Below the pieces are notes generated by a model. The model worked only from the letters and a program-made list of their open reading frames with translations, did not search any database and was not told where the DNA came from. From contig JAYYJK010000062.1 of assembly GCA_036146255.1 (NCBI GenBank), forward strand, positions 1 to 31,373: a stretch of DNA of 31,373 bases. The letters are read 5' to 3'. Origin of the DNA: Nanobdellota archaeon (GTDB lineage Archaea > Nanobdellota > Nanobdellia > Woesearchaeales > UBA583). The translations under genes and the position numbers were made by a program. Of the stretch, positions 7,545 through 29,398 are shown one piece after another (within the stretch, counting starts at the first letter, position 1; each line of letters starts with the position of its first letter).

Positions 7545-8606
7545 ATGAACGATATACAACGTACTAATTTTATTGAAGAAATTAAGAATCACGCTTATCT
7601 TATCTTAAAACAACATTATAAAATCTCAGTCTCTGCTAGGGTATCAGTTATTTTTGATACAGAAACTGAACTCTCACAGATGCTAAAGGAAGGATTTGAA
7701 GGTGCAATTCAAAAGCATGCAAATTCTTATGATCTCCATGATTATGCTTCTTTTGATCATCAAGAATATTTTGATGATTTAGATTGGAATGCAAGAGAAG
7801 GAGATATTGCAATTTTAATTCAATCAACTTCATTTAGATCAACTAAATTTAGATTTAGAAATGATTTATGTACAAGAGGTCTTAAAGTAATTGAATTTGG
7901 ACACCTTCACAAAGTATTAGAAGAAGAGTATCAAACATTTATTGATTCTCTAAAACCTGATGACGAGAGGATTTTCCCTTTAGTTGATTCTTTGGTTGAA
8001 GAATTAAAAGATATCAAGTCAATTGAAATTACATCAATGAATGGCTCAGTTGCTAAATATTCAGGCCCTATGGATTTTGCAACAACAAATGATGGAAGAT
8101 ATGAGGGTCAAACTAATTATGGGTCAAGATATCCAATTGGAGAAGTTATCTCAGAAGGTTTAGATTTATCTACTTTAAATGGAGACATTGAAGTGTATGC
8201 ATATCCATCCATTGAAGGACAATTAACACAATTTGTTGATCCATTTACAGTTACTATTGAAAATGGGTTTGTAGTTAGTCATAATGGACCTAAAGAATTT
8301 GATGATTTAATTGAACTCATTAAAACAGAACACCCAGATGGTAAAGTATATGTAAGAGAATTTGGACTTGGACTTAATAGAAATATTCCTAGACATTCTA
8401 GAATTGGTGATCCTATTGCTTATGAGAGACAAGAAGGTCTGCATTTTTCTTTGGGTATGAAACATGGTATCTACCAAAAGAAACTTTGGCCAAAATATGG
8501 TAAAAAGTTTAAGCAAAAATTTCACATCGATGTTTATGTTAATGCTAAGTCAATTACATTTAATGAAAAACAAGTATATACATATCCGCAAGGATTTATA
8601 TTGTAA
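7545..8606 (+). CDS. aminopeptidase-T / peptidase M29-like metalloprotein
   Basis: YPIGEV, LNGDIEV, VTIENGFV, VREFGLGLN, ERQEGLHFSLG resemble the M29 (COG2309) C-terminal metal-binding domain. Confidence 0.6.
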   Translation: MNDIQRTNFIEEIKNHAYLILKQHYKISVSARVSVIFDTETELSQMLKEGFEGAIQKHANSYDLHDYASFDHQEYFDDLDWNAREGDIAILIQSTSFRSTKFRFRNDLCTRGLKVIEFGHLHKVLEEEYQTFIDSLKPDDERIFPLVDSLVEELKDIKSIEITSMNGSVAKYSGPMDFATTNDGRYEGQTNYGSRYPIGEVISEGLDLSTLNGDIEVYAYPSIEGQLTQFVDPFTVTIENGFVVSHNGPKEFDDLIELIKTEHPDGKVYVREFGLGLNRNIPRHSRIGDPIAYERQEGLHFSLGMKHGIYQKKLWPKYGKKFKQKFHIDVYVNAKSITFNEKQVYTYPQGFIL

Positions 8607-14226: not shown

Positions 14227-14754
14227 CTATTGAGTCCCATACCTATCTATAATATGAGTTAAAAGACAATTTTCAATACCTAAATTTTTTGAAGTGTTTA
14301 ATCTAATTATAGCTAGTGCGTCAATGTTAGGGTTTTGTCTGAATTCTTGTTTAGCTACCTGTTCTGACATTATACCATATCCGTTTATTTTTTGATACTC
14401 TTCAAAAGAGTTATCTTGAAAGGAGAATTGATACAACATTTGAGGTTTAGTGTGAGTGAAAAGGATATATGCTTGGTGAGAACCTTCTCCTGTAAATTGG
14501 TTTTTTATAGATAGTTCTAAATCTATCATTGAATGTAGAGCATCTTTTTTTTGATTGTATCTTTGTCTTAATGCATTTAGTTTATCAGATAAATCTTCTA
14601 ATCTATCTAGATCTACATCATCTCTATTAATATTGTTGCTAATTTCTTCTGTTGCAATGTCTAAATTAAATTCAACTTCACCTAAATTCCACTCTCTAAG
14701 TGTAGAATCTGTAGTGTTTAATAATATTGCTATTTTGTCCTCAATTGTTATCAT
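14227..14754 (-). CDS. hypothetical protein (175 aa) with acidic coiled-coil N-half
   Basis: Clean ATG ORF without overlap; no family recognised. Confidence 0.6.
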   Translation of the reverse strand: MITIEDKIAILLNTTDSTLREWNLGEVEFNLDIATEEISNNINRDDVDLDRLEDLSDKLNALRQRYNQKKDALHSMIDLELSIKNQFTGEGSHQAYILFTHTKPQMLYQFSFQDNSFEEYQKINGYGIMSEQVAKQEFRQNPNIDALAIIRLNTSKNLGIENCLLTHIIDRYGTQ

Positions 14755-14828
14755 AGAATTGAGAATATCTTTATATTTATATGTTAATTGTTTTATGTAT
14801 AAAATAATCCTTTGGAAAAATAAAAAAA

Positions 14829-15692
14829 TTAATTTAAATTATTTGCTAAAAATGTAATTGTTTTATTCCAAGCATCTTTAGTTTCTTCTTCAGCAAACCT
14901 TGAACCTTCAGGATTTAAAAATGCATGACCCACACCTTCATAAATTGTAATGTCATTTTCTAAATTTAACTCATCAAGTCCTGATTGAAATGTTCTTACA
15001 GTATCTGGAGTAATTCCTGTATCTAACTCTCCAAATATTCCTAAAACTGGTGCATCTACTTGTGAGATTTTTTCAAGCTCTTGAGGTAATGAACCATAAA
15101 AGATTACAGTTGCATCTAAATTAGCATCTGATACTGAGAGTTGTGCTGATTGCTCTCCACCAAAACAAAACCCTAATGATGCTACTTTGTTAACTCCTTC
15201 AAATTCTTTTAAATACTCAATACCATCTTGCATATTTTGAGTTGCAATGCTTTGATTAATAGAAGTTCTAAGTCTCATTGCTTCTTCGCTACTTTCTGCA
15301 ACTTCTCCATTATAGAGGTCAACTGCAAGTACTACATATCCTTCTTTTGCTAGAGTATTTGCTACTTCTTTAATATGATCATTTAAACCCCACCATTCAT
15401 GAATTAAAATAATTCCGGGGTATTGTTTATTATCATCAGGTCTTGCTAGATATCCTATTGTTGATTCTCTATACTCGATATCTTCTGATGTAATTAAAAT
15501 ATCTTCATTAGATCCTACAATTGAGAGAAATTGATTTGTTGTTCCAATAACACTCATGTGATCTGTTGTTTCATTATCTTGCATTTCTGGAATATTTTGG
15601 ATTTCCATGTCTACATTAGTTGATGATTCATTTGTAGAACATGCACTAAATAGTAACGTGAACAGTGATAAAATTATAATTATTTTGTTCAT
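14829..15692 (-). CDS. dienelactone hydrolase-family alpha/beta hydrolase, probably exported
   Basis: IHEWWGLN, GYVVLAVDLY, nucleophile motif GFCFGG, FYG, GVGHAF.NP; N-terminal lipobox-like LFSAC. Confidence 0.9.
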   Translation of the reverse strand: MNKIIIILSLFTLLFSACSTNESSTNVDMEIQNIPEMQDNETTDHMSVIGTTNQFLSIVGSNEDILITSEDIEYRESTIGYLARPDDNKQYPGIILIHEWWGLNDHIKEVANTLAKEGYVVLAVDLYNGEVAESSEEAMRLRTSINQSIATQNMQDGIEYLKEFEGVNKVASLGFCFGGEQSAQLSVSDANLDATVIFYGSLPQELEKISQVDAPVLGIFGELDTGITPDTVRTFQSGLDELNLENDITIYEGVGHAFLNPEGSRFAEEETKDAWNKTITFLANNLN

Positions 15693-15885
15693 ATGTAAAC
15701 AATGTAACTTTAACTATATAAAATAATGGTTTGAAAATCGAATTAATTTATGAATTTTGTGACTACAAAATGTTTTTTGTTTATTTTACTATCTTGAAAT
15801 ACTATGTCTAACCTAGATCAGAAATACAAAGAATTAAATTATATCCTTTGGAAAAATATATAAGCAACGAAACTACATATCAACT

Positions 15886-16446
15886 ATGGAATATATTGAA
15901 CAAGTAGAAAATTTAAAACAACTTTCTAAATTATATAAATCAAAATTTGAACAAAGTAAAGCGATTTTTACACAATCAAATCCATTTACTCAAAGTTTAT
16001 TTGGAGATAACAGCGGTGTTAGTATTGCAATTAATTATGCTAGAATTGGAGTGGGTGAATCAAAATATATTGATTTTTTACCTATTTGTTTTGGATCTAC
16101 ACAATGGTCAAAAGGATTAGAAATTGAAATGCTAGATACACAAAGAGAAGAACATATTAGACTAAAACAATATCTAAATAGAGATACATTTGATTTACTT
16201 GGACTATCGATACCGACAACTATGTCATGGTATCAAGCTACTTTAGAATCTATTGATTCTAATAAAAATAATATACCTCAACATAGTATCATTAGCAATG
16301 ATGTAGAGTCAACTTTAGAATTACTTCAAGCTAAGAGATTCGAGAGATTAGATACAATATTAAAAAATATTGAATCAAGTCTTGAGTTTGGACCAGATTT
16401 AGTTTTGCATGATTATTGGTCAAATATGAAAATGTATTTAGATTAG
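15886..16446 (+). CDS. hypothetical protein (186 aa)
   Basis: Clean ATG ORF; TATA-like AAATATATAA about 25 nt upstream; no family recognised. Confidence 0.6.
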   Translation: MEYIEQVENLKQLSKLYKSKFEQSKAIFTQSNPFTQSLFGDNSGVSIAINYARIGVGESKYIDFLPICFGSTQWSKGLEIEMLDTQREEHIRLKQYLNRDTFDLLGLSIPTTMSWYQATLESIDSNKNNIPQHSIISNDVESTLELLQAKRFERLDTILKNIESSLEFGPDLVLHDYWSNMKMYLD

Positions 16447-16508
16447 ATGAGTAAAATCAGAAATATTTTATCTAAGCTCAGAAATGATAGGGATTGTAAA
16501 TGAACTAA

Positions 16509-16943
16509 TTATTTTATTTCTTTCTCCATAATAAAAGAATTTTTCTCCCTACCTTCAGAAGCAATACTAAAACCAAGTTTTTCATATAACTTTAAAGTTG
16601 GATTATTTTTAAATACAGTTAAACTCACAAAATCTAAATTATTTATTTGAGCAGTTTCAATTAAATCTGTAATTAACTTACTACCATATCCTTTTCCTTG
16701 ACATTCTTTTTTAACTTGAAGATTAATGATATGCAATTTCTTCTCAATTATTTTGAAAATTGAAAAGCCAACTAGAGAATCTCCTTCAATTAATACTTTT
16801 TTTGGTAATTCTTTATACCAACCATTCCATGTATTTAATTGAACTTCTCCTGCTGACCATCCATCATATATAATCATATTTTCTTCTTCTATTTTCATAC
16901 ATTCATCTAAATACTCATCAGAGTAATCTTTTAACTTAATCAT
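16509..16943 (-). CDS. GNAT family N-acetyltransferase
   Basis: LHIINLQV...QGKGYGSKL acetyl-CoA motif A; LTVFKNNP..KLYEKLGF. Confidence 0.92.
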   Translation of the reverse strand: MIKLKDYSDEYLDECMKIEEENMIIYDGWSAGEVQLNTWNGWYKELPKKVLIEGDSLVGFSIFKIIEKKLHIINLQVKKECQGKGYGSKLITDLIETAQINNLDFVSLTVFKNNPTLKLYEKLGFSIASEGREKNSFIMEKEIK

Positions 16944-17055
16944 ACTATTATATTATAATTTCTATTTAAATAATTAATTATTATACACCCACCCGAGGTC
17001 AGAAATTTGAAGAATTTGGGGAGTATGGAGAGAATGAGAGAATTGATTATTTTAT

Positions 17056-18855
17056 TTAAATTATATCTTGATTTTCAATACTTATTGGCTTTTTTTTTAT
17101 TTTTCCTAGGATGTTTAATAATTCTTCCTCGAGTAAAATATTATCTTGTATTAAATCACATACATATAATGCAAGTTCATATTTTGTTTTATTGTAGTAA
17201 GAGCATAAAATTTCCGAAAATTTTTTTTCTTCTAAATTCAATGTTTTTTTATTAAGCTTAGAGTCAAAAATTTTATTTAGAGATTTAATAAATAAACCTT
17301 CATCGTTAATGTCTAATAATTCTTTATTCTCATAGATAGCTTCTGCAAAAACTTTAAATTTGAAATCCCTAGGATATTTTTTAAGTATTTTTAGATCATC
17401 CGGTAATTTTAATAGATGTTTTGGATAATAATCTTCTAGTTCTCCTTTTGATAGTATGTGTATATTATCATCATATAAATTATCAATTTCAATTTTATTC
17501 TCAAGGTTTAATGCATCATTATCTAAAATTATGTGATATGGTATTTCAAACTTATTTAAAATTTTTATAAAATTATTTACATTATCTTTGCTATTCATAT
17601 TTATTATTGAACAATTATTAAATGTTTCTTCGAGCTTAAGAATATGACTAAAAAAAACCTTATCAGATAGTCCCTCTACAAGTATAACATAATCAGAAAA
17701 TAAAAATTCTGAATTCTCTTCTTTCACTACTTTTTGAAATAATTTATATAAATCCTTCTCTTCTTTATTTAAAACAAAACTGCGAGTTATATTTGAATTA
17801 TAATTCTTTTTAAATATGATTAATTGATCTGGGTTTGAATTTATTACAAATTTATCCGAATGTGATGTCAAAATAAATTGATTTTTAATGTTTGATAATT
17901 TTATATTCAAATTTTTTTGGGCTATAGGATGTAAATATAATTCAACTTCATCAATGCAAATGATTGGTAGAAATTGAAAAAAATCGTTTGCTTTCAGTAT
18001 TAAACTAAATAAAAAAAGGTTTTGTAACCCACATCCTTTAAATGATAAATCTTGTTCTTTACCGTCATTAACAATAATAGTTAAATTATCTAGTAAAAAT
18101 TCAGACTTTTTATATAAAGAAGTCAAAGGGTCTGAAAAGATATCTTCTTTCAACTCTTCCTTAGGAATAAATTTTATTGATTTTATTTCTGGAAAAAAAC
18201 TTTCCAACATGCTTTTTTCTACTGAAAAAAACCAATCATTAAAAAGATTATAAAAGTTACCTGTATTTAATTTTGATTCTGTAGAAGATATAAATTTCAT
18301 AATTAAATTTGTTATAATTAATCTAAAAGAAATACTAGAACTATCTTTTTGAAAATCATCTGATTTAATAATATCAAGAGTTCTATTAGTATCAAAAACC
18401 AAAGAATTAAAATAACGATATGTAGCAATTTTAACATATTCGTTAAAGTTACAATTATCATCATAATAGAAAGTTCCTTCTTCTCCGTATTTCCTTTCAA
18501 ATTTTAAATGGAATAATATTTTTCCTCCCTCTAGTTCAGTATAAACTCTTCGTTCACTGACTGGATTTGTAAATTCTTCTATATTTTTCACCTCCTCTTC
18601 ATCAAAACTAAAAAAAAGTTCAATTTTTATTGGATAATTGATATCGTGATATAAATTTTCATCATTAAACCTTTCATCAAACACAGGATTATCCTTCCCT
18701 TTATTAAATGGATTTAGCATTAATTTAATAGCTTCTAAAAATGCAGATTTTCCAGAATTATTTTTTCCAATAATTACATTTTTATTTTCATCAAGATTTA
18801 AATCGAGCTTCACAAAAGATTTAAAGTTTTCAATTCTAATCCTAACTAACTTCAT
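17056..18855 (-). CDS. OLD-family ATP-dependent nuclease (ABC ATPase + TOPRIM)
   Basis: IENFKSF, Walker A GKNNSGKS, signature-like GCGLQ, Walker B/D-loop IDEVELYLHP, TSHS; TOPRIM VILVEGLSD and ILDND; ELEDYY. Confidence 0.9.
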   Translation of the reverse strand: MKLVRIRIENFKSFVKLDLNLDENKNVIIGKNNSGKSAFLEAIKLMLNPFNKGKDNPVFDERFNDENLYHDINYPIKIELFFSFDEEEVKNIEEFTNPVSERRVYTELEGGKILFHLKFERKYGEEGTFYYDDNCNFNEYVKIATYRYFNSLVFDTNRTLDIIKSDDFQKDSSSISFRLIITNLIMKFISSTESKLNTGNFYNLFNDWFFSVEKSMLESFFPEIKSIKFIPKEELKEDIFSDPLTSLYKKSEFLLDNLTIIVNDGKEQDLSFKGCGLQNLFLFSLILKANDFFQFLPIICIDEVELYLHPIAQKNLNIKLSNIKNQFILTSHSDKFVINSNPDQLIIFKKNYNSNITRSFVLNKEEKDLYKLFQKVVKEENSEFLFSDYVILVEGLSDKVFFSHILKLEETFNNCSIINMNSKDNVNNFIKILNKFEIPYHIILDNDALNLENKIEIDNLYDDNIHILSKGELEDYYPKHLLKLPDDLKILKKYPRDFKFKVFAEAIYENKELLDINDEGLFIKSLNKIFDSKLNKKTLNLEEKKFSEILCSYYNKTKYELALYVCDLIQDNILLEEELLNILGKIKKKPISIENQDII

Positions 18856-18885
18856 ATATTATTTGAAAAGTTCTAATTTATATAT

Positions 18886-18960
18886 CTAACTCTCTTTCAA
18901 AAATTCTCTTACTTTCTCTTCTAATTCTTTTTTATCTAGAAGATGTAGTTTATATCTTGA
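18886..18960 (-). pseudogene. yhcG: 75-bp remnant of a yhcG 3' end (SRYKLHLLDKKELEEKVREFLKES*)
   Basis: 63/75 nt identical, without gaps, to the last 75 nt of the intact yhcG (21195-21269; SRYKLYLPDKKELEEKVREVLKEG*). Confidence 0.9.
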
Positions 18961-19108
18961 TTAAAATAATTTTGAATTAATTGACTTTCAAAACAAAGGT
19001 ATTTAAATTTATTTATATAAAGTAATTATATGAAAAATAATTTTTCTGAGATAATTATTAATGTCTATGTATTAATTACTATAGCTTTTTTTCATTATAT
19101 TTAGTTAT

Positions 19109-19714
19109 TTGTCTCAGATTAGCAGTTTTTTTGAAAAAATAATTAATATAATTATAGTTTTTATATTAATTCTAATTCTTTCTTCATTATATAACAATAT
19201 TATTAGATATCATAACATATATCTCTTAAATAAATATGCTAATGACAAAAAACTAACTGTTGAATTAATGTTTGGATATGATAATATTAAAAGTTTTATT
19301 ACGATATCTATCTTTAGAATTATTGGATTATTTAATTTAATTGAATATTTTTCTAAACGTAATATAAAATTTAAAATTTATATAAATATTAAAAAGGATA
19401 AATTTAATCAAATTATAAAAAATAAGAATATCCAAATATTGTATATTATAGGACACGATAAAAAAACTAAGTTTAAATTAAATAGAAATGAGGTAATATA
19501 TTATTCTGAATATAAAGAAACAAAAAATAAGAAAGAGGAGATACATCTATATCATTGTACACCTGGTACTCGAAAATCTTTAATTGATTATTTACTTAAA
19601 AAAGAAAATAAAACAGATATATCTAAGTTTTATATTAAAAACGATTTATTCTTCTCTTTTCTTGAAGGGATAAAGTTAAAAAATAGAAAGATCATTTTTT
19701 TAAAAAAAGACTGA
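19109..19714 (+). CDS. hypothetical protein with N-terminal TM helix; possible degenerate clan-CD (caspase/CHAT-like) domain
   Basis: TTG start, hydrophobic IINIIIVFILILILSSLY, later LYIIGHD and IHLYHC strand-His / strand-Cys pattern. Confidence 0.5.
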   Translation: MSQISSFFEKIINIIIVFILILILSSLYNNIIRYHNIYLLNKYANDKKLTVELMFGYDNIKSFITISIFRIIGLFNLIEYFSKRNIKFKIYINIKKDKFNQIIKNKNIQILYIIGHDKKTKFKLNRNEVIYYSEYKETKNKKEEIHLYHCTPGTRKSLIDYLLKKENKTDISKFYIKNDLFFSFLEGIKLKNRKIIFLKKD

Positions 19715-19919
19715 TTATATATCCAATTAAACTAATTATAATAATGAATAAAGCAAAATAAGAAATATCTACCAAAAACTCGCCTATAACTTTTTCTGGA
19801 TCTAAGAAAAGTAAAACTTCCCCAATTAAAAATGAAAATAAAAAAAATGGAACTCCTAATATTAAACCTTGTTTGGAATATTCTCTTAATAATTTTTTGT
19901 ATATATATTTCTTGACCAT
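19692..19919 (-). CDS. small two-TM membrane protein (75 aa)
   Basis: Two hydrophobic helices; converges on and overlaps the 3' end of the 19109 ORF. Confidence 0.5.
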   Translation of the reverse strand: MVKKYIYKKLLREYSKQGLILGVPFFLFSFLIGEVLLFLDPEKVIGEFLVDISYFALFIIIISLIGYIISLFLKK

Positions 19920-19965
19920 ATTAAATCTAAAATTTTATTATTTAAGTAATCTTCCAATGCCTCTT

Positions 19966-20439
19966 TTATTGAGAAATTATTTTTCTACCATTTTCATACA
20001 GTTCAATTTTAGTTTTTTCTTCAGTTTTACCTAAGATTATATAATAACCAATATTATAATAGAAGTTAGAATTATTAGTTAAAATACATAAGTTCTCTCT
20101 ATCTTTATCTCTATTAGAATAATTATTATATTTTTTAATTTCAAAACAAACTAAATCATCATTACCATTCTCATTTCTTTTTGTAATAACAATATCTATA
20201 TAGTTTCCATTTAAATTTGAAACTACTTTAGGTCCTGTTTTTTTATTTAAATGTGATTTATTGTATTCACAATCGACATAATAACCTTCAAAACCTTCTC
20301 TTTCTAAACAAACTGCAAGTCTATGGACAATACATCTCTCACATAAATCATTATCAAATAAAAATTTATCATTTTGATATAATTTATTAATTGCTGAATT
20401 TACTTTTTGTTTAATTATTTCTTTATTCATTTTTCCCAA
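19966..20439 (-). CDS. small PD-(D/E)XK restriction-endonuclease-like protein; true start probably the ATG at 20430
   Basis: ER.I.HRLA..L, VDCEYN, IDIVITKR, LVCFEIKK give an E...D...ExK pattern. Confidence 0.65.
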   Translation of the reverse strand: MGKMNKEIIKQKVNSAINKLYQNDKFLFDNDLCERCIVHRLAVCLEREGFEGYYVDCEYNKSHLNKKTGPKVVSNLNGNYIDIVITKRNENGNDDLVCFEIKKYNNYSNRDKDRENLCILTNNSNFYYNIGYYIILGKTEEKTKIELYENGRKIISQ

Positions 20440-20550
20440 CCATTTTCAAAGATTATCAAAGAACTTTTTTAGAAAGCTACAATATTCAACTATTTTTTTC
20501 TTCTCTTATTTCTTAGTAATAAATTCCTCTGTCTAAAAAAAATTAATCAT

Positions 20551-21156
20551 TTATTTCCACCTTGTTTGAGCTAATAAGGTATTGTTTAACTTAGAACCTA
20601 ATTTATCTTTTAAATTTTTAATATCTTCTTCTGTTGTATAGACAAAATCAAAATTTTTATTTTTTCTACATAAATTGGAATATTTTTCTTTCTTTGATTC
20701 CATATTATGTTTGTATTTAAGATCTTCTAATCCAAAGTGCTCAATAATTACAGATTTATTTTCATCAATATCAACTATAAAATCTGGATGTAAATCAATA
20801 TTGTCTATAGTTATTTTCTCTTCATAATATGGATTTAACCCATTTTGTTTTAAAAATAAATATATGATTACTTCAGATTTTGATTTAAATTTAATATTGT
20901 TGAAATAATAAATCCCTTCATATTTTTCTCTAAAGTTTTCTTCTTGTTTCTTCTTTATTAAATCTGCTTTTTTTATTTTCTTTGAAGCTTCTTGCTTTTC
21001 TAACCAATGCTCTTTACATAAATTATGGCCTTCAGGCACTTCAATATCACATACATCACAAGTAGGTTTTTGATTTTCTTTTTCAGAACATTCCCAACAT
21101 AAAGGAAACCATGGTTTTTTATAATTACCACAAGTAGGACATTTAGTTTGACTCAT
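20551..21156 (-). CDS. double zinc-finger protein with C-terminal PD-(D/E)XK/Vsr-like nuclease domain
   Basis: CPTC..CWEC and CDVC..CKEH; then KSKSEVII..FL, YYEE, PDF, IIEHFG. Confidence 0.7.
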   Translation of the reverse strand: MSQTKCPTCGNYKKPWFPLCWECSEKENQKPTCDVCDIEVPEGHNLCKEHWLEKQEASKKIKKADLIKKKQEENFREKYEGIYYFNNIKFKSKSEVIIYLFLKQNGLNPYYEEKITIDNIDLHPDFIVDIDENKSVIIEHFGLEDLKYKHNMESKKEKYSNLCRKNKNFDFVYTTEEDIKNLKDKLGSKLNNTLLAQTRWK

Positions 21157-21194
21157 ATATAAGTCTGATTTCTTTTATTTATAAAATCTATTAT

Positions 21195-22178
21195 TCAACC
21201 CTCTTTCAAAACTTCCCTTACTTTCTCTTCTAATTCTTTCTTATCAGGCAAATATAATTTATATCTTGATGCAAAGAGTTGATCATTATCTAAGGGAAGA
21301 GAATATTCAACTACTTGTTCTTTTTTATCTAAACATAAAAGAATTCCTATGGTTTTATTTTCTTCAGGAGATTTTACTTTTCTATCATAATAATTTACAT
21401 ACATTTGTAGTTGTCCTAAATGTTCATGCTTAAGTTCTCCAACTTTGAGTTCAAATATTACAAAGCATTTTAAGAAACGATTGTAAAAAACTAAATCAAT
21501 GTAAAAATATGTTGAATCTAGGATTATTTTTTCTTGTCTCGAAACAAATGAAAATCCTTTACCTAACTCCAAAATAAACTTCTGCAAATTATCAATTAAC
21601 TTTTGTTCCAAATCACTCTCAGATAATTTCTCTATTCCATCAAGTCCTAGAAATTCAAAAATAAAAGGATCTTTGATTAAATCTTTACCTGATTCAATTA
21701 CTTGTCCTTTCTTTGACAATTCTATAACTCCTCTTCTATCTCTGGATAATGCTATTCTCTCAAATAAAGCTGAATTAATTTGTCTTTGAAGTTCACGAAC
21801 TGACCAATTCTGAGACTCAATTTCCTTGATATAAAAGTTTCTTTTTATCTTATCTTCTATCCTTAAAAGTGTGCAATAGTGTGACCATCCCAAAAGGCCA
21901 GACAGTGTCTGGCTTTTTGGAAAGAGAATATATAACTTCTTCATATCTTTCAAATTAGATAAACTAAAACCTTTCCCATACTGTTTAGTTAACTCCTTAG
22001 ATAGTTCTTTCAGTAATCCTTTCCCATACTCAGCTTTAATTTCACCTTTCTGTTCTTCTTCAACTATCTTACGACCAATCTCCCAATAAGCTTTTACCAT
22101 AATAGTATTAATTTGTGTAACTGCTTGTTTTCTAGCATTCTCTATGATTATACCTATATCTTTTGAAATTGTTTTCAT
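21195..22178 (-). CDS. yhcG: YhcG / DUF1016 PD-(D/E)XK nuclease family protein
   Basis: AYWEIGRKIVEEEQ, LGWSHY, WSVRELQRQINS.LFER, KDPFIFEFL, ELGKGFSFV.RQ, YIDLVFYNR.LKCFV.FELK, GQLQMYVNYYD, IGILLC. Confidence 0.95.
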   Translation of the reverse strand: MKTISKDIGIIIENARKQAVTQINTIMVKAYWEIGRKIVEEEQKGEIKAEYGKGLLKELSKELTKQYGKGFSLSNLKDMKKLYILFPKSQTLSGLLGWSHYCTLLRIEDKIKRNFYIKEIESQNWSVRELQRQINSALFERIALSRDRRGVIELSKKGQVIESGKDLIKDPFIFEFLGLDGIEKLSESDLEQKLIDNLQKFILELGKGFSFVSRQEKIILDSTYFYIDLVFYNRFLKCFVIFELKVGELKHEHLGQLQMYVNYYDRKVKSPEENKTIGILLCLDKKEQVVEYSLPLDNDQLFASRYKLYLPDKKELEEKVREVLKEG

Positions 22179-25141
22179 CTTTTCACCTCAAAGTATTCAG
22201 TTAATTCTACTCTTGTCACTATAGTTATTTTCAAGTCACCAAGTAATCTCTCATAATATCTTTTCATTTTAGAATTCGTTAATACAATAATTACTTTATC
22301 ATATTCTTGAGAAACTGTTAAAAACTTTTGATATATCCTCTTTTTATGATACTTGAATCTAATTCCTGTCTCTACTTCTATTGCAATTTGTTTATCTTCA
22401 TTTGTGAGAACTAATAAATCTACATCCTTGACAACATTGACTTTGACTGTTTTAACATAAGGTTTTAGAAATTCTTTGATATTATGGACAATAAATGTAT
22501 GTTCAATACTTTCTACATCATTTGTTTTAACCCAAACTTCTTCAAACTTTACTTTATTTATTGGAACTAAGTTTGCAACTTTATATCCGTTTAATCCAAG
22601 TAAATTCTTTTCTCCTCTTGATAATACTTTTCCATAATAAAATCCTTTTTCTAGATCTAGTGTAATTTTACCATTCAATACAACATTTTTCTTTGTAACT
22701 ATAGTTCCATTTAATTCGTCTGGATTTGTTGTAATTATTTTATTTTCTTTAGGTGAAGCTACAACTTCAATTTCTTGATGTTCATTCTCTAAGATTAAAA
22801 TACCTCTTCCTTTAACTGAAGTTAATAGATAATCTTTTTCAACTTGAGACAAATTGAATGTTTTAACTACACTTGATATGACTGATGGTTTTTGTCTTAG
22901 TAATAAAGTATAAGATGAGTTTGAGAGAACTGCACTTCCTGCTTTTGATGATAATAAATCTTCTACATCTTGAGTTATTAATAATAACCCTAAATTGAAT
23001 TTACGACATGTCTTTACAATTTCAAAAATATATGATGCTTCTTCAGTTTTAGATAATAAAGACCATGCTTCATCAATTACAAGTAATTTTCTCTCTTTAC
23101 TTGACTTCATTCTAGAATATACAAATTCTAATACTAAAAACATTACAAGAGGTTTTACTTGTTTAGGCATGTCACCTATATTAAAACATACAAAATTTGA
23201 TTTAAAGTTAAGATTAGTTTCTCTATTCATGAAAGAAAATACTCCATGAGTAAACATGAATAATCTATTTAAAAGTGCCTGATAAGTTGTCTTTTCAATC
23301 CTATTTGCTTTTTTAGATAAGAGTTCTAATTCTTTGTATAAATCTCCTAGAATTGGCATTGAGGTATTTTCTTTTGAATTCTTTGTAATATTCTTTCTTG
23401 CATAAGTATTTGTTAAAGCTTTATCTAAAATTGCTTTTTGAATTTCAGATAATTCACCAAACATAATTTTAAACATATCCATTAGAGATAATCTTTTTTC
23501 AATATAGTCATGTCCCATTAAATCTAGAGGATTAATAATTGTCTCTGAATTTCTAGAAATTGTAATTAATTCTCCTTTAGAATAATTTGTCAAGTTAACA
23601 TACTCTCCTTGTGGATCAATTACTATTACTTGTGTATTTTGAAGTAGATGTCTTAATATTAATAACTTTGTAAAATATGATTTACCAGAACCTGATGTTG
23701 CTAAAATTACTCCATTTGCATTAGATAAATTATAGATATCTCTAATGATTGGAATTTTATTTTTATTTAATCCTAAAAAGATTCCATTCTCTTCCATTGA
23801 TAAGAAAGGCGAAGTTAGAGGGAAAAATGCAGATAAAGCATTAGTCGTAATATTTCTAGTTTCACCTATTTTATTTTGGGCTTTAGGTATTAAGCTTTGA
23901 TATCCTATGAATTGTTTAAATAAAGGAATTTTTGGTTGTATCATAATTGAATTTAATTCAGCTTCAACTTTCTTTGTTAGATAATCTAAATTTTCTTTTG
24001 AAGTTGATTTACAATTAATTATTAAAGAGATGTTGAATAATTTCTCTTCACCTTTTTGCAAATTGTCTAATACTTTTCTTGTATCTTTAAACTTAATTTC
24101 AAGCGAAGGATTAATTGAACCTTTAAGTTCCTCTGAATATAGATCAGCTCTTTGTTTTTGTAACTCTCTATTAAGCATAAGCATAGTTGATTCAATTGAT
24201 AAAGGTTCAATGTGAATTGTAATATCAAAGTCATCATTTGTAGATATTATCTTATCTAGAAATCCTTGCTCAACAACTCTTGGATATCCTGAAGTTGTAA
24301 TTACTCTTGAGAATTTCTCATTGAGTAAAAGATGATTATATTTCTCATCAATAAAACTTGGACCAATATTAAAGTTTAAACTATTTTGAAATTTTTCTTG
24401 AGTTTTATTTGATTCATTTGAACTATTAAAAAATAGATGTATTGTATTAACTAGTTGATTTGTATTCAATCTTTTTGAAGAGATTCCCAAATTTCTAAAT
24501 CTATCAATACATATATTTGTTTGAATTTCGATATTTGATATCTCTAAAATAGAGAGGTAGAATTTTCTATTTCTGATCTCTTTTTCAGAAATAAAATTTT
24601 TGATAAATTCTGAGAAATCTTCGTATAATTCTTGCTCATCATTTTTTTGTTTTAAATTTGTAAGATAGTCTTTAATGGATAAATTCTCTGTGGTTATTAC
24701 AAATTGAACTGGAAAATCAAGGGAATTTAGAAATTTCTGAAATGATTTAATAATTGAATATTTGTCATCGTCATTTCTAATTGAAAAGTTAATTGGTTGA
24801 ATTTCAAGAATAGATACTTTTCCCTTCTTTGTATATATGACATCATTTTCAATTTTATCAATATTAATTAGATCTTCAATTTTCATTTTTTGATTTGAAA
24901 ATTTAAATTTTAAAAATTGTAGGATATTAATTAACTTCTCAGAGAAATTAAAGAACATAAATCCTAAACCTAGTATGATAAAAGGTGAAGATAGTATTGA
25001 GAAGATATAGATATTAGAATTATTTTTAAATAATATCAATACTGGAATTAAAAAGATAAATGCATAAAATAACTGTGTTAATGTTAAATTAAATATGATT
25101 TTTTCTTTATGTTTAAGTTCTTGTGGTATTTCATAGGACAT
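22175..25141 (-). CDS. virB4: VirB4-like conjugation ATPase with N-terminal PrgI/VirB3-like membrane domain and C-terminal nuclease-like extension
   Basis: N-terminal YEIPQELKHKEKIIFNLTLTQL + 2 TM (PrgI-like); Walker A ATSGSGKS; IDPQGEY, INPLD; Walker B VIDEAW; RKFNLGL..ITQDVED; GRGIL; about 180-aa tail with EH..V, D and IAIEVETG. Confidence 0.85.
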   Translation of the reverse strand: MSYEIPQELKHKEKIIFNLTLTQLFYAFIFLIPVLILFKNNSNIYIFSILSSPFIILGLGFMFFNFSEKLINILQFLKFKFSNQKMKIEDLINIDKIENDVIYTKKGKVSILEIQPINFSIRNDDDKYSIIKSFQKFLNSLDFPVQFVITTENLSIKDYLTNLKQKNDEQELYEDFSEFIKNFISEKEIRNRKFYLSILEISNIEIQTNICIDRFRNLGISSKRLNTNQLVNTIHLFFNSSNESNKTQEKFQNSLNFNIGPSFIDEKYNHLLLNEKFSRVITTSGYPRVVEQGFLDKIISTNDDFDITIHIEPLSIESTMLMLNRELQKQRADLYSEELKGSINPSLEIKFKDTRKVLDNLQKGEEKLFNISLIINCKSTSKENLDYLTKKVEAELNSIMIQPKIPLFKQFIGYQSLIPKAQNKIGETRNITTNALSAFFPLTSPFLSMEENGIFLGLNKNKIPIIRDIYNLSNANGVILATSGSGKSYFTKLLILRHLLQNTQVIVIDPQGEYVNLTNYSKGELITISRNSETIINPLDLMGHDYIEKRLSLMDMFKIMFGELSEIQKAILDKALTNTYARKNITKNSKENTSMPILGDLYKELELLSKKANRIEKTTYQALLNRLFMFTHGVFSFMNRETNLNFKSNFVCFNIGDMPKQVKPLVMFLVLEFVYSRMKSSKERKLLVIDEAWSLLSKTEEASYIFEIVKTCRKFNLGLLLITQDVEDLLSSKAGSAVLSNSSYTLLLRQKPSVISSVVKTFNLSQVEKDYLLTSVKGRGILILENEHQEIEVVASPKENKIITTNPDELNGTIVTKKNVVLNGKITLDLEKGFYYGKVLSRGEKNLLGLNGYKVANLVPINKVKFEEVWVKTNDVESIEHTFIVHNIKEFLKPYVKTVKVNVVKDVDLLVLTNEDKQIAIEVETGIRFKYHKKRIYQKFLTVSQEYDKVIIVLTNSKMKRYYERLLGDLKITIVTRVELTEYFEVKR

Positions 25142-25142
25142 T

Positions 25143-26078
25143 TTATTTTACCCCCTTTGATCTCACTACTTTAGTGATTGTTTTGTAATACTTGATTATA
25201 CTCTTTGAAGATGTTGATTTATAAGAGGATACTGATAATGTAAATTTTCCTAAGAATATAAAAAGAAATATTACAAGTAAGTATGCACAAATCATAAACA
25301 TTGTTTTAGTAATTCCGCTATATTGTACAACTAATTGAGATACAACAAGAAGTATTAATGATGCAAAGAATGTTGAGAAAATAAATACCATTAATATATT
25401 TAGAAATAATTTCCCGTATGATCTCAGTGGAGGAATAAAATAGAGGAAAATACCTAATGGAAAAAGTATTAGGCCTAAGAAGATAATAATAATTCTAATT
25501 GCTAAAAAAACTGCTGTAATTAAAAGGATTATCATATATATCAACAATAATGTTGTTTGAGTTCCTTGGTTGAAGAGTCCTAAGTTTTGAAGTTGGTAAA
25601 ATGATTCAGGAATCCTTGATAAAATACTTTGAACTAAAGTTGAATTTAATTCTAGAATTAGGTTATAGATAAAATAAGATCCTTGAATTAATATTAACAT
25701 AAATAATGTATTTTTTAACCATTCCTTAGCTAATTCTCTTTTTACAACATCATGTCCTGATATAATAAAAAGAAAACCAGCATAAGCTATAATTAATACA
25801 TAAAAAAAAGATAATATGTACGTAATTATTTTCCAATTATAATAATTATTTGATATATCTGGATTTTCTTCCATAAACTCTCTAATTAAATTATTGAAAG
25901 GTTCTAATGCTTGATTCATTAAATATAAAATATAATCAAATAATTTCTCAGGAATATAAAAAATAGCATCTGAGAGTTCTTCAAATAAATCATCAAAAAA
26001 TGAAAAGTCATTATCATCATCTTGAGCAAATACTGAAGGAATTAGTAGAAGTATTGTTAAAAAAATAAATAGTTTCAT
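25143..26078 (-). CDS. VirB6/TrbL-like polytopic membrane protein
   Basis: Signal peptide, amphipathic region, then 6-7 TM helices including ILFPLGIFLYFIP.LRSYG; located between the pilin-like gene and virB4. Confidence 0.65.
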   Translation of the reverse strand: MKLFIFLTILLLIPSVFAQDDDNDFSFFDDLFEELSDAIFYIPEKLFDYILYLMNQALEPFNNLIREFMEENPDISNNYYNWKIITYILSFFYVLIIAYAGFLFIISGHDVVKRELAKEWLKNTLFMLILIQGSYFIYNLILELNSTLVQSILSRIPESFYQLQNLGLFNQGTQTTLLLIYMIILLITAVFLAIRIIIIFLGLILFPLGIFLYFIPPLRSYGKLFLNILMVFIFSTFFASLILLVVSQLVVQYSGITKTMFMICAYLLVIFLFIFLGKFTLSVSSYKSTSSKSIIKYYKTITKVVRSKGVK

Positions 26079-26389
26079 GATATAACATAGTTAATCACAA
26101 TTGGTGCAACCCATATAACAAATAAACCAATGATAACGTAACCTCCCGTAGTTTTAGCATCATCTCTTTTCTTTTGTTCTGAACCTGATGTCATAAATTG
26201 AACTCCAACAAATACTAAAGCAAGAACTGCAATGACTGTTGCTGCATATTTAATGAAGTTATATATCTTCATAATTGGAGTAAGCATAGTGTCAAATGTT
26301 TCCTTATCTTCATCACTTAGTTCTTGATTAAAATCAAGACTAAACACGCTTGGAAGTAAAAGGAAAAGTAAAAATATGATAGATTTCAT
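26075..26389 (-). CDS. TrbC/VirB2-like pilin
   Basis: Signal peptide + two hydrophobic helices separated by GVQFMTSG....RDDAK; 104 aa; first gene of the virB-like operon. Confidence 0.75.
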   Translation of the reverse strand: MKSIIFLLFLLLPSVFSLDFNQELSDEDKETFDTMLTPIMKIYNFIKYAATVIAVLALVFVGVQFMTSGSEQKKRDDAKTTGGYVIIGLFVIWVAPIVINYVIS

Positions 26390-26523: not shown

Positions 26524-29397
26524 TTACTTTAAGTAAATTTCTTGGATTAGGTTTAATATTTTCTTTTTTACATATTGTGTTTCAAATTTAATTTCAATTT
26601 CTGAATTAAAAAGTTTTTCTGCATGTTTAATTTTTCTTTTTTCTTCTTCTCTTAAACTATCATCATCAGTATTTTTGGTTTCAACAACTAAATTTAATTT
26701 TTTATTTCCATTTTTAAAATTTAGAACATACGCAAAATCAGGAGAATAGGTTTTTCCTCCAGCTACTGGAATTTTAATTGAATTCTTTGGGATTTTAGTA
26801 AAAACAACAACTTCAGTTAAATTTTGTTGAATATTCTCTTTTTCTAATTCAGAATCATAAAATAATTCATCAAAAATATAATTTTCTGCTACTTTCTCTT
26901 CAGAATATGAAATACCTACATTTGAGGAATCAATTTCAGTTAAAACATCTCCTTTTCCGTCAGTAATCTTTGTTGGGTGAATTGAATTTGTAACTTTTTG
27001 ATATTCAATACTAAATTTTTCTATTGCATTATATAGTAAATAGTTGTCAAATTTTTGCTTAAAAATTCTGATTGTATTTTGATTCAAATACTTATTAATT
27101 TCAGTTTTAGTATCAATAAAACTTTGGTGTATTGTTTTCAGATTAATATTTAATATATTTGATAGTTGAATTAAAAAATCATCATATTTCATTGTTGAAA
27201 TTGGAGTTATCTCATTTTCAGAAATATTATATTCTTCGTGACTTTGGGCAGAGTTGTTTTCAATTTCAAGTTTAACTATTTTCTCTTGTACTCCTTCAAT
27301 AGAAAAAAATGTGTTATTATTTAGAAAATCTATGAATAATTCTTTAAATTTAGATTCATTTTCAATTTTATATTCTAAAATTACTTTTTCATTTAATTTC
27401 TCCCACAATTCTTTTAATTCAGAATATTTTTCAGCTCTAATTTTAACTTTTTTTTTCAAATTTGAGGATTTTCTAATTTTATTTGAATCAATTCCTTCAA
27501 AAATCAAAGGAAAATTAGATTTAATATAGTCAAATCCATTTTCTTTAAAATCATTATTTCTTTTAATAATATCTTTTTCATCTAATTGATCTAAAAGTGC
27601 ATCTTCTGTTAAATTATATTTTTCAATAATTTGTTTTATCATATTATTATCTAATTTAATTGGAATATTCTCTCTTGAAATTGCACCTGACTTCTCATTA
27701 ATTTCATTAACTAACCTTTCTACAAAGTCATTTTCTGTAAAGTCAACAAAATAGTTTAAATAAAATTGCTCTTCTTTGACTCTGTTGAAAAATTCATTTA
27801 CAGGAAGTCTTAAACCTCTACCAACTTCTTGTAATTTGGAAGTTTCAGAACCACTACTTCTTAATTTACAGATTTGAAAAATATTTGGATTGTCCCAACC
27901 TTCTCTAAGTGTCCATTTTGAAAAAATAAATCTTCTGGGATTATTTAAATTTAATATTGATTTTTTATCATGTAAAATTTCAGTAACTTCTTTTTCAATA
28001 GATTCTTCACTATTTTTATTATCTTCTGAAAAATAACCTCCATGTGTTTTAGGAATATCTTCTAATGTTTTTTTTAAATAATTTTTATAAAATTCATTAT
28101 TTTCAGTTTTTAACAAATTTTCAACTTCTGATTTGATATATTTTTCAACAATTAATCTAATTGAACCATTCTCATTTCTATATTCTTCAATGTTATCAAT
28201 AAAAAAAAGAGATAGTGGTTTAATTTTAACTTCCCTAGTAAGGTATTTTTTTTCTTGTTGAAAATGATTTTTAATAGTTTTTTTAATCATAGTTTCTTGA
28301 AGTGTTTGGGAATAAGAATAAGGATTTATTTTATCTCCTTTTTTTAATTCTAATCCATTTGATAAAATAATTGTATTTTTATTTAAATTTTCAATATATA
28401 AATCACTCATTGCCGGATGAACTTTTTCTAAACTATCTTTTTTTATTAATTTAAATGTTTTCTTTTTAATATCCTCATTGAGTTCTAAGGTTGCTTCTTT
28501 ACCATCAGAATTATTAAATTTAACTAAAATATTTTCTCCATTCTCAAATTCAGTAATATGTGCTGTAACTCCTTTAACAAGATTCCTATTAAATGAATCT
28601 ACAGCTGTTAATGTATATACTAAATTTTCATAAGCATTATCTTTAAATGTTGCTCCATATCTTAAAATAAACTGAGGTTTGATATGTTCTGTAATATTTT
28701 TCCAAGATTTTCCTGTGTCCCCAAATTTATGTGGTTCATCAATAATCATAAATGGCTTTGTTGAAGAAATTGCTTCAAATGGTATTGAATATTTATCTAA
28801 TAAAGATTTATCATAACTCTCCAACATTTTTTTAGAATTAATCATCCCACTATTAATAATTAAAACCTGAATTTTATTCTTTTCAAATTTACCTGAATTT
28901 ACAAAACTAGTCACAGCAGTTGGCATATATGATTTTTGGTTTTTTCTAACTTTTTGACTTTCAATAATATGTAAATTAATTGTTTTCCCATATTGTTCTT
29001 TAAAATGTTCTTTAGTACTATCAGAAGTTAAAAAATCTATAGTTCCTGCTTTAATTGGAAGAGTTGGGACAACAATAATAAATTTATTAATTCCATGAAT
29101 TTTATTTAATTCAAATATTGTTTTTGTATAAGTATAAGTTTTTCCGGTTCCAGTTTCCATCATAATATCAATAATATTACTTTTTCCTTTTACATTTCTT
29201 TCAATATTATTTTGTTCTTGAATATTCCCAATATTATTTACATATGTGAAATTTGATTCTGTGTCAAAAATTGGATTTGTGAAATCTTTATATAAATTTT
29301 GCGAATTCTTGATATCAAGAGAATTAAAAACACCTATTGTTGATTTAACAGCTTGTGTTTGATGATCTAAATTTTTTTCGAAGTTAAAATTTGACAT
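26524..29397 (-). CDS. res: type III restriction-modification endonuclease/helicase subunit Res
   Basis: METGTGKT, IIDEPH, LREGWDNPN, QEVGRGLR, C-terminal nuclease SPDF...VVETK. Confidence 0.95.
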   Translation of the reverse strand: MSNFNFEKNLDHQTQAVKSTIGVFNSLDIKNSQNLYKDFTNPIFDTESNFTYVNNIGNIQEQNNIERNVKGKSNIIDIMMETGTGKTYTYTKTIFELNKIHGINKFIIVVPTLPIKAGTIDFLTSDSTKEHFKEQYGKTINLHIIESQKVRKNQKSYMPTAVTSFVNSGKFEKNKIQVLIINSGMINSKKMLESYDKSLLDKYSIPFEAISSTKPFMIIDEPHKFGDTGKSWKNITEHIKPQFILRYGATFKDNAYENLVYTLTAVDSFNRNLVKGVTAHITEFENGENILVKFNNSDGKEATLELNEDIKKKTFKLIKKDSLEKVHPAMSDLYIENLNKNTIILSNGLELKKGDKINPYSYSQTLQETMIKKTIKNHFQQEKKYLTREVKIKPLSLFFIDNIEEYRNENGSIRLIVEKYIKSEVENLLKTENNEFYKNYLKKTLEDIPKTHGGYFSEDNKNSEESIEKEVTEILHDKKSILNLNNPRRFIFSKWTLREGWDNPNIFQICKLRSSGSETSKLQEVGRGLRLPVNEFFNRVKEEQFYLNYFVDFTENDFVERLVNEINEKSGAISRENIPIKLDNNMIKQIIEKYNLTEDALLDQLDEKDIIKRNNDFKENGFDYIKSNFPLIFEGIDSNKIRKSSNLKKKVKIRAEKYSELKELWEKLNEKVILEYKIENESKFKELFIDFLNNNTFFSIEGVQEKIVKLEIENNSAQSHEEYNISENEITPISTMKYDDFLIQLSNILNINLKTIHQSFIDTKTEINKYLNQNTIRIFKQKFDNYLLYNAIEKFSIEYQKVTNSIHPTKITDGKGDVLTEIDSSNVGISYSEEKVAENYIFDELFYDSELEKENIQQNLTEVVVFTKIPKNSIKIPVAGGKTYSPDFAYVLNFKNGNKKLNLVVETKNTDDDSLREEEKRKIKHAEKLFNSEIEIKFETQYVKKKILNLIQEIYLK

Positions 29398-29398
29398 T

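Follow-up and report, generated by a model that had tools for sequence, protein, structure and literature searches.

We analysed a 31,373-nucleotide (nt) archaeal stretch, the entire contig G000:C62 (hereafter the window), in which the nuclease gene yhcG of the DUF1016/YhcG family is followed, about 2.3 kb behind it and beyond four open reading frames (ORFs), by a second, orphan copy of its own 3' end. We consider, with a probability of about 0.6, that this orphan tail is the dead 3' end of a second, once-working yhcG allele, an ordinary recombination or deletion scar left by gene turnover in the surrounding island. Such a scar would date and orient a gene-replacement event in a DPANN-type defence island, a group in which the turnover of defence genes is little described, and it suggests that alleles of yhcG (candidate defence family PDC-S02) recombine and get replaced inside these compact genomes.

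The two copies, 18886–18960 and 21195–21269, are identical at 63 of 75 nt without any gap. On the minus strand the orphan reads SRYKLHLLDKKELEEKVREFLKES up to a TAG stop and the intact copy reads SRYKLYLPDKKELEEKVREVLKEG up to a TGA stop, with 20 of 24 residues identical. Among the 12 nucleotide differences, seven fall in codons of preserved meaning, including two within the stop codon, and the blocks of identity measure 12, 23 and 11 nt, the longest thus being 23 nt. An initial annotation of this DNA had reported the same repeat counts and the four cargo ORFs between the copies, and our recount agreed with it throughout. No other direct repeat between 15000 and 26000 is as long as this tail pair (family D1, 89 nt at 82%).

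We observed that a YhcG query against the whole 947-kb assembly gave two matches only, the gene and the orphan tail (E = 5e-7 for the tail, paired with YhcG residues 297–326 with one TAA inside). BLASTN with 111 nt of the intact tail recovered 18888–18961 at E = 1e-19 (per genome). The orphan scored 28.2 bits with a hidden Markov model (HMM) of the tail, against 9.1 bits for the best reversed-sequence control, and a genome-wide HMM search gave it 39.6 bits (E = 6.4e-10); it occupies positions 308–337 of the family HMM. A YKLYLP match on another contig of the assembly (G000:C50) lies inside a 997-amino-acid (aa) ORF on the opposite strand and was therefore regarded as chance.

In the flanks of the repeat, identity falls to 4–7 of 15 nt per 15-nt block. 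The initial annotation had described a sharp edge at the SRYKL codons. This holds against the resident allele, where 12 of the 31 nt upstream of SRYKL are identical, but not at the protein level, where a faint N-x-x-L-F match to the family profile extends about six codons further upstream of SRYKL (NSKLF followed by a stop in the orphan, aligned with NDQLFA). It had also noted a TATA-like box and a nuclease gene behind each tail, and reading of the sequence bore this out: a co-oriented nuclease-type gene has its ATG 30 nt (orphan) or 38 nt (intact copy) past the tail, with a TATA-like run about 20–29 nt before it. Our reading of such runs rests on the expected position of the TATA element in archaeal promoters.

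Next, we compared the differences between the copies with a simulation of random changes carrying the base bias of the genome (20,000 trials). The seven of 12 differences in synonymous codons contrast with a simulated mean of 1.43 (P = 0.0003). A second orphan, on contig C37 of the nearest genome, G016 (same genus as G000, the assembly of the window, with flanks about 90% identical), shows 17 differences from the G016 gene, and synonymous codons account for 13 of these, a count that none of the 20,000 simulations reached. The synonymous excess indicates that the orphan lay in a working gene while most of the divergence arose, and that it did not arise by recent copying of the resident tail. 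This pattern shows that the orphan comes from a distinct, once-working yhcG allele that was under coding constraint.

The orphan tail has decayed after the loss of the rest of the gene. It has no start codon, and a TAA stands directly before its first (Ser) codon. The invariant Pro311 is changed to Leu both in the window orphan and in that of G016:C37, and 1 nt is inserted in the orphan of G016:C37 and 2 nt are deleted from that of G016:C16. All the signs expected of a deletion relic were observed: coding capacity is lost, invariant positions have changed, and other genes have left comparable relics in the vicinity. The initial annotation had taken the tail for a different functional allele rather than a decayed duplicate; the distinct allele is upheld by the simulation, but it has decayed since. 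The orphan core is nearest to the resident clade, and P0001, a relative whose YhcG is 94% identical to that of the window, ends in KES, like the orphan. We also tried to assign the parent allele type from the 10 residues upstream, which were uninformative (5/10 at best).

The alleles of yhcG appear to be mosaic, and recombination seems to occur inside the gene: of the 20 residue differences between the YhcG of the window and that of P0001, 17 are confined to residues 69–114 (window 21837–21974). This patch has the look of a mosaic gene or, alternatively, of a hypervariable segment. N-terminal relics of yhcG in G015 and G057 all end near residues 94–114; one of them, a 99-residue relic at 7768–8064 of G057:C7 (locus L021), lies 7 nt upstream of an intact yhcG to which it is 39.5% identical.

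The initial annotation had proposed a search for orphan tails in related elements, and such tails do exist in other genomes. Including the window, we counted five relic tails (the window, G016:C37, G016:C16, G346:C8 and G086:C17). The orphan of G016:C37 reads NF, a stop, LFASRYKLYLL, the 1-nt insertion and then DKKELEEKVKEVLRNK up to its stop; it comes after oppositely oriented PD-T4-3-like (2.9e-57) and DUF2779/Cas4-like genes and lies 54 nt before an ORF of 119+ aa. That of G016:C16 (locus L019) is found 20 nt after a C-terminal fragment of hsdM; a 488-aa ORF begins 31 nt further on and is itself followed by the intact yhcG. The relic of G346:C8 reads SKYKLYLPNKKELE after a possible initial M, 32 nt before an 87-aa ORF, in a genome whose sole intact yhcG is a distant copy on another contig. 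In G086:C17, HMM positions 199–271 are fused to the tail, and a triose-phosphate-isomerase-like gene begins 68 nt behind it; this relic is the only trace of yhcG found in that genome.

Such tails are not confined to yhcG. An unrelated 492-aa gene, still whole in G016:C95 (locus L035, 2961–4439), has left its final 21 codons (62 of 63 nt identical) at 1637–1699 of G016:C16, between a toxin-antitoxin-like pair and a conserved 175-aa gene. As an unrelated gene leaves an equal tail, tails of this type are a general by-product of indel turnover here.

Wider searches yielded little more. In the genus, a tail-profile search of 20 genomes found no further orphan. In the order sample, 40 of 401 genomes gave tail matches, of which the eight with short open frames were all inspected: frameshifts or stops interrupt three otherwise full-length genes, contig ends truncate three more, and two are relics. 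In the class sample, 15 of 401 genomes matched the tail profile, and apart from the short-frame matches G731:C27 (at a contig start), G609:C60 and G646:C32 these added no clear orphan. Among 80 diverse yhcG loci (species representatives, flanks of up to 8 kb), no orphan tail rose above the reversed-sequence control; the matches were four frameshifted genes and three marginal ones. The latter, L121, L105 and L167 (10.0–11.7 bits against a control of 9.1), were treated as noise, that of L121 being antisense in its own gene. Searches of the literature on DUF1016/YhcG in defence islands and integration hotspots, and on homology-facilitated illegitimate recombination, brought up no account of orphan yhcG tails.

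Motif searches were less specific. A 23-nt core motif in IUPAC code with up to two mismatches occurred in 67 of 401 order genomes, but the reversed pattern matched as well, in low-complexity Lys/Glu coding sequence. An exact 26-nt motif in metagenome contigs gave 24 loci, namely one intact yhcG, 20 unrelated coding genes and three identical non-coding copies. The non-coding copies (L067, L082 and L090, near 5001) lie in identical 10-kb stretches of 33% G+C with an upstream similarity, YKQLHLFDKKELEEKV, in one frame; there is no yhcG within 5 kb of the motif.

The segment that holds the orphan also differs between close relatives. YhcG matches were present in 9 of 61 related genomes (G000 included), and G016:C16 carries an 89%-identical orthologue. 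Variable content downstream of yhcG, which the initial annotation had anticipated, was indeed observed: the G016 orthologue has neither the cargo of the window nor OLD (the OLD-family ATPase-nuclease gene behind the orphan) following it, and 1.4 kb with a toxin-antitoxin-like pair separates it from the orthologue of the 175-aa gene, compared with a gap of 6.4 kb in the window. Synteny of the window with both G016 haplotypes ends at 14798. None of the 10 G016 island proteins tested has a homologue in G000. The regions around the 175-aa gene in G016:C16 and G016:C95 are 94.8% identical, with cassette-sized indels beside them. Because synteny stops, the island proteins of G016 lack homologues in G000 and the two haplotypes differ by indels, we interpret the segment beyond 14798 as a variable, defence-rich island. 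The G016 assembly (1.8 Mb, 4% contamination) appears to combine sequence from two strains.

The genes between and behind the tails are of defence type, as had been supposed from the sequence: PADLOC assigned PDC-S02, Old/GajA, PD-Lambda-3_A and PDC-S68/S69 in the window, and PD-T4-3 and a Cas4-like protein with DUF2779 in G016:C37. No cargo was shared among the yhcG-tail loci compared. Alleles in which yhcG directly precedes OLD, another expectation of the initial annotation, did not turn up among the relatives searched.

The assembly of the repeat was checked with Logan contigs of four runs from a single study, possibly the source sample. The orphan junction is bridged without differences in X1 (17203–19036), X2 (16800–19017) and X3 (18559–19009), and the intact-tail junction likewise in X1 (19436–22400), X2 (19369–22400) and X3 (20279–21876). 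The concern that the repeat might be an assembly artefact is largely removed by these contigs, which bridge both junctions, with 19018–19374 weakly covered. An excised or variant form, with one tail joined to the other, was looked for as well; no tail-to-tail joint was found in the Logan contigs, which drop rare variants and are uninformative on absence. Listed joints that suggested a cargo-free form have a shorter side of only 21–22 nt and look spurious.

It is likely that most of a second yhcG allele was lost during turnover of the island, leaving the 75-nt copy (about 96 nt with the faint 5' extension). By one route, incoming DNA would have recombined inside yhcG, bringing the present 3' end together with the four cargo genes and shifting the old tail and OLD downstream, a displacement that would rest on homology on one side and on illegitimate joining on the opposite side. 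By the other, a tandem second copy of yhcG would have been mostly deleted. The initial annotation had favoured recombination inside yhcG; the mosaic alleles agree with it as one of the two routes, but deletion of a tandem copy fits too. The orphan tail itself would have no function, and it probably persists because it is short and abuts the promoter of OLD, so that further deletion would be harmful. We infer both the route, displacement or deletion, and the cause of this persistence.

Several points weigh against the scar interpretation. Displacement and deletion are not distinguishable by the present data. The five relic tails have their 5' ends at HMM positions 308, 308, 314, 314 and 316 of 338. 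This clustering looks non-random and is the best argument for a preferred breakpoint, although it could reflect erosion from the 5' side toward a protected promoter together with a detection floor of about 20 residues, just above which relics would accumulate; in the four relics checked, a TATA-like run lies about 20–29 nt before the downstream ATG. The tail left by the unrelated 492-aa gene weakens the argument as well. Three orphans occur in the two closest genomes against 0 in the 80 diverse loci, whereas generic decay predicts no lineage-specific excess. A co-oriented gene follows within 30–68 nt of all five relics, which fits a functional or cassette reading too. Finally, the link over 19018–19374 is carried only by contigs that are short and of low depth; at 19017 and 19375 each of the four runs breaks off and shows the same other continuations. 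In the bin 19044–19230 the depths of the four runs were 5.7, 6.2, 0 and 1.2, compared with about 8–16 beside it, that is, about half the flank depth or less. Because the four runs branch there and the window version has low depth, a second haplotype probably carries another sequence in this 357-nt stretch.

This 19018–19374 stretch adjoins the orphan tail and covers the start of the 201-aa plus-strand ORF. A short-string search of the collected sequences with the continuations at 19017 and 19375, and with three others, gave no match.

The conserved tail of yhcG might instead be a portable landing pad at which cassettes are exchanged by their homology arms, so that blocks of defence genes stack up behind yhcG; we regard this as unlikely. 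Tail-to-tail recombination could then bring a stored gene, such as OLD, directly behind yhcG, as in Rhs and contact-dependent inhibition (CDI) modules. In two genomes, five different genes stand behind the tails of this allele clade (a zinc-ribbon nuclease-like gene, OLD, the toxin-antitoxin-like pair, the 488-aa ORF and the 119+-aa ORF), and the clustering of relic ends at HMM 308–316, the mosaic alleles and the tail being the most conserved part of the family, with 23 nt identical between the window copies, all agree with such exchange. The published displacement models for Rhs and for type VI secretion systems (T6SS) are close analogues, as passages of PMC5361080 describe them. Yet the window has a single orphan tail and no array; the G016:C16 orphan is upstream of the intact gene, directly after the hsdM fragment; the relics of G346 and G086 have no intact yhcG nearby; and the 80 diverse loci have no orphan tail. 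The loci compared share no cargo, the contigs, though they drop rare forms, hold no tail-to-tail joint, and an unrelated gene left the same type of tail. A sequence of 75 nt at 84% identity is, moreover, a poor substrate for homologous recombination. We therefore find no case for the dedicated capture site that the initial annotation had proposed, with no recombinase among the 29 ORFs scanned, no hairpin, 0 of 80 loci with an orphan tail and an equal tail from an unrelated gene. The more specific proposal, that the last ~30 codons of yhcG serve as a portable homology arm shuffling stored defence genes within and between genomes through recombination of the tails, without a dedicated recombinase and as a defence-gene parallel to the switching of Rhs/CDI orphan modules, is more doubtful still. 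If a recurrent landing pad were real, defence islands could expand through repeated use of a resident gene's conserved end, with no integrase involved, and the Rhs/T6SS displacement model would extend to archaea and to separate downstream genes.

Improbable, in our view, is retention of the tail as functional DNA that would give OLD and other downstream genes an additional promoter, a 5' leader or a regulator-binding site. The SRYKLY codons read AGATATAAATTATAT, which resembles an archaeal TFB-recognition element (BRE)/TATA element, three relics start within a few codons of this internal TATA-like run, three of five (window, G016:C37 and G346) lie in divergent intergenic regions, and all five have a co-oriented gene 30–68 nt behind. 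However, the downstream genes possess their own TATA-like run past the tail stop, about 20–29 nt before the ATG, the orphans carry indels and substitutions, with the internal run altered in the window orphan and in G016:C37, and TATA-like strings are common at 26% G+C; none of the six runs listed for the locus is recorded as RNA. Even less probable is site-specific integration of a small element with a replacement tail into the 3' end of yhcG, with the tails as attL and attR and the integrase lost or acting in trans. Such integration classically repeats the 3' end of the target gene directly and restores that gene, and the identical blocks of 12, 23 and 11 nt would suit it. Against this, no integrase or transposase matched among the 29 contig ORFs, the cargo consists solely of defence-type and membrane genes, and the repeats are 16% different, mostly synonymously, as in old allelic divergence and not in a duplicated core. 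Between relics, the 5' ends are as much as about 24 nt apart, and three of the four other relics are unpaired with an intact gene in the DNA examined, the fourth (G016:C16) being upstream of one. An integron-cassette reading with attC-like hairpins was rejected too: no hairpin was found in the tails (DNA folds of four tails gave z-scores of 0.53, 0.35, −0.61 and 1.71), there is no IntI-type integrase, and no Rfam family matched the tails at E up to 0.1. Coincidental similarity or an artefact of the assembly is already largely refuted and hardly credible. Lys/Glu codons dominate the A+T-rich, low-complexity sequence, the 26-nt core motif alone matches unrelated genes such as chaperones and kinases in 20 of 24 metagenome loci, and the middle of the bracket (19018–19374) is weakly assembled; but the DNA match at E = 1e-19, a repeat that is in frame from stop to stop, the significant synonymous excess, the homologous orphans in other genomes and the junctions bridged without differences in the contigs of several runs all speak against it.

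Taken as a turnover scar, the orphan yhcG tail adds a case from an unusual organism to a type of scar already known, and it would gain in meaning if the clustering of breakpoints proved site-specific. Its closest analogue would be the Rhs/T6SS type of 3'-end displacement. For the rhs, CDI and T6SS effector-immunity loci, passages of Kirchberger et al. 2017 (PMC5361080), which cite Jackson 2009, Poole 2011 and Koskiniemi 2014, propose displacement of 3' ends through homology-facilitated illegitimate recombination. As described there, a gene with a conserved part gains a new 3' end and downstream genes while the old end is pushed on and orphaned, and the orphans keep a short conserved piece at their 5' edge and stem from other functional alleles. 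The window orphan likewise derives from a different functional allele (7/12 synonymous, P = 0.0003) and lies downstream with cargo between, an arrangement not seen for G016:C16, G346 and G086. In those passages, however, the displaced pieces are variable toxin domains in long arrays, whereas the yhcG piece is a conserved gene end and single; successive orphans are absent, as neither the contig nor the rest of the assembly has a second orphan tail. Furthermore, the variable parts of the yhcG case are separate genes after the stop, the host is archaeal, and two of the five relics are away from any intact gene.

Islands and integrative elements at gene 3' ends resemble the locus in that direct repeats of the target-gene 3' end bracket a block while the target gene stays intact; they differ in that the yhcG case shows neither an integrase match nor mobility genes in the cargo, its repeats being 16% apart, mostly synonymously, with edges unequal between cases. 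Defence-island hotspots, of which parts of an E. coli survey (PMC10121019) give an example with variable cargo beside conserved genes, share with it varied defence-type genes in a segment that differs between close relatives within conserved flanks. Published cases come from bacteria and are mostly tied to mobile elements, whereas the present locus yielded no mobility gene and is marked by the scar of a gene fragment. With ordinary pseudogene remnants the tail shares the missing start codon, the upstream stop, the changed invariant residues, the indels and an unrelated-gene tail in the same island, but an intact copy of another allele is only 2.3 kb away, and the ends of the relics are clustered.

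The coordinates of the features in the window are collected in Table 1; families were assigned by scanning the 29 contig ORFs against Pfam with curated cut-offs and against PADLOC.

Table 1. Features of the window around yhcG and the orphan tail, listed in minus-strand order.
Feature	Coordinates	Strand	Basis
Type III restriction-modification pair, directly upstream of the pilin operon	26524–31315		Pfam
Pilin / membrane protein / ATPase operon, upstream of yhcG	22175–26389	−	Pfam, ORF coordinates
VirB4/TraG-like ATPase, 988 aa	22175–25141	−	P-loop_TraG 3.8e-27, DUF87
Intact yhcG, 327 aa, PD-(D/E)XK nuclease, DUF1016/YhcG family	21195–22178	−	Pfam, PADLOC
Repeat copy A, last 24 codons and TGA stop of intact yhcG	21195–21269	−	nt match to 18886–18960
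38-nt spacer, TATA-like run ~20–28 nt before the ATG of the next gene	21157–21194	−	direct reading
Cargo 1, 201 aa, N-terminal Cys-rich zinc-ribbon-like and C-terminal PD-(D/E)XK-like	20551–21156	−	PADLOC
Cargo 2, 157 aa, PD-Lambda-3_A-like	19966–20439	−	PADLOC PDLC03986 5.2e-11, residues 5–144
Cargo 3, predicted 75-aa hydrophobic ORF	19692–19919	−	ORF list
Cargo 4, 201-aa membrane-type ORF, divergent from orphan tail and OLD	19109–19714	+	ORF list
Orphan yhcG tail, core 18886–18960, faint similarity to ~18981	18886–18981	−	nt and HMM match
30-nt spacer, TATATAAA ~22–29 nt before the OLD ATG	18856–18885	−	direct reading
OLD-family ATPase-nuclease, 599 aa	17056–18855	−	Pfam, PADLOC
Remainder of variable segment, OLD to conserved 175-aa gene	14799–17055	.	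Pfam, synteny
GNAT	16509–16943	−	Pfam
186-aa ORF, no assigned family	15886–16446	+	ORF list
Dienelactone hydrolase	14829–15692	−	Pfam
Conserved 175-aa gene	14227–14754		orthologue in G016

On the minus strand the order is thus type III modification and restriction genes, pilin, membrane protein, ATPase, yhcG, cargo 1 to 4, orphan tail and OLD, with GNAT, the 186-aa ORF and dienelactone hydrolase beyond. The intact YhcG matches YhcG_C (1.6e-56, 191 bits against a cut-off of 32.5) and DUF1016_N (9.7e-46, 155.7 bits against 32.8) in Pfam and PDC-S02 (5.1e-137) in PADLOC. In an alignment of 36 sequences its C-terminal tail is the best-conserved stretch, with F302, Y306, L310 and P311 invariant. 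The OLD protein has the N-terminal ABC-type ATPase and TOPRIM domains that define the family, AAA_15 (2.1e-27, 97.2 bits) being followed by OLD-like_TOPRIM (7.7e-16, 58.8 bits), and in PADLOC it matches Old (1.4e-36) and also the GajA models.

Cargo 1 matches PDC-S68 (5.7e-13, residues 89–164), PDC-S69 (2.2e-5) and HEAT_CxxC_PD-DEXK (0.0027) in PADLOC, while Pfam gave zinc-ribbon matches below threshold and nothing else. It has homologues in four other genomes of 401 (one of the four set aside). As a donor arrangement of yhcG with the zinc-ribbon gene we considered the best match, in G374:C6 (52%, frameshifted), which adjoins neither yhcG nor the 157-aa gene. Cargo 2 has no Pfam family, and neither cargo 3 nor cargo 4 matched a family in Pfam or PADLOC. 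A homologue of cargo 4, 43% identical, is found at 5374–6027 of G013:C1 (locus L036), in a relative from the genus, amid housekeeping-type genes; rather than being a defence gene, cargo 4 may have been copied from a chromosomal gene for a membrane protein.

No integrase, recombinase or transposase match was present among the scanned ORFs. Upstream of yhcG, the stop of the VirB4/TraG-like ATPase overlaps the yhcG start, and the ATPase is itself preceded by a 311-aa membrane protein and, before that, a VirB2-like pilin (T4SS_pilin 9.7e-13, TrbC 9e-9). The ATPase has a weak PrgI-like N-terminus (below the cut-off) and a C-terminal extension of about 200 residues without a family match. DUF1016 genes within conjugative type IV secretion system (T4SS) clusters are recorded for Rickettsia elements in part of PMC4316617.

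The G000 assembly comprises 947 kb in 155 contigs, is rated 85% complete and has 26% G+C. It encodes an archaeal-type Cbf5 (TruB_N, PUA and DKCLD domains), which together with the small genome suggests a DPANN-type archaeon, and the homologues nearest to the YhcG of the window in protein databases carry the source labels Nanoarchaeota or Woesearchaeota.

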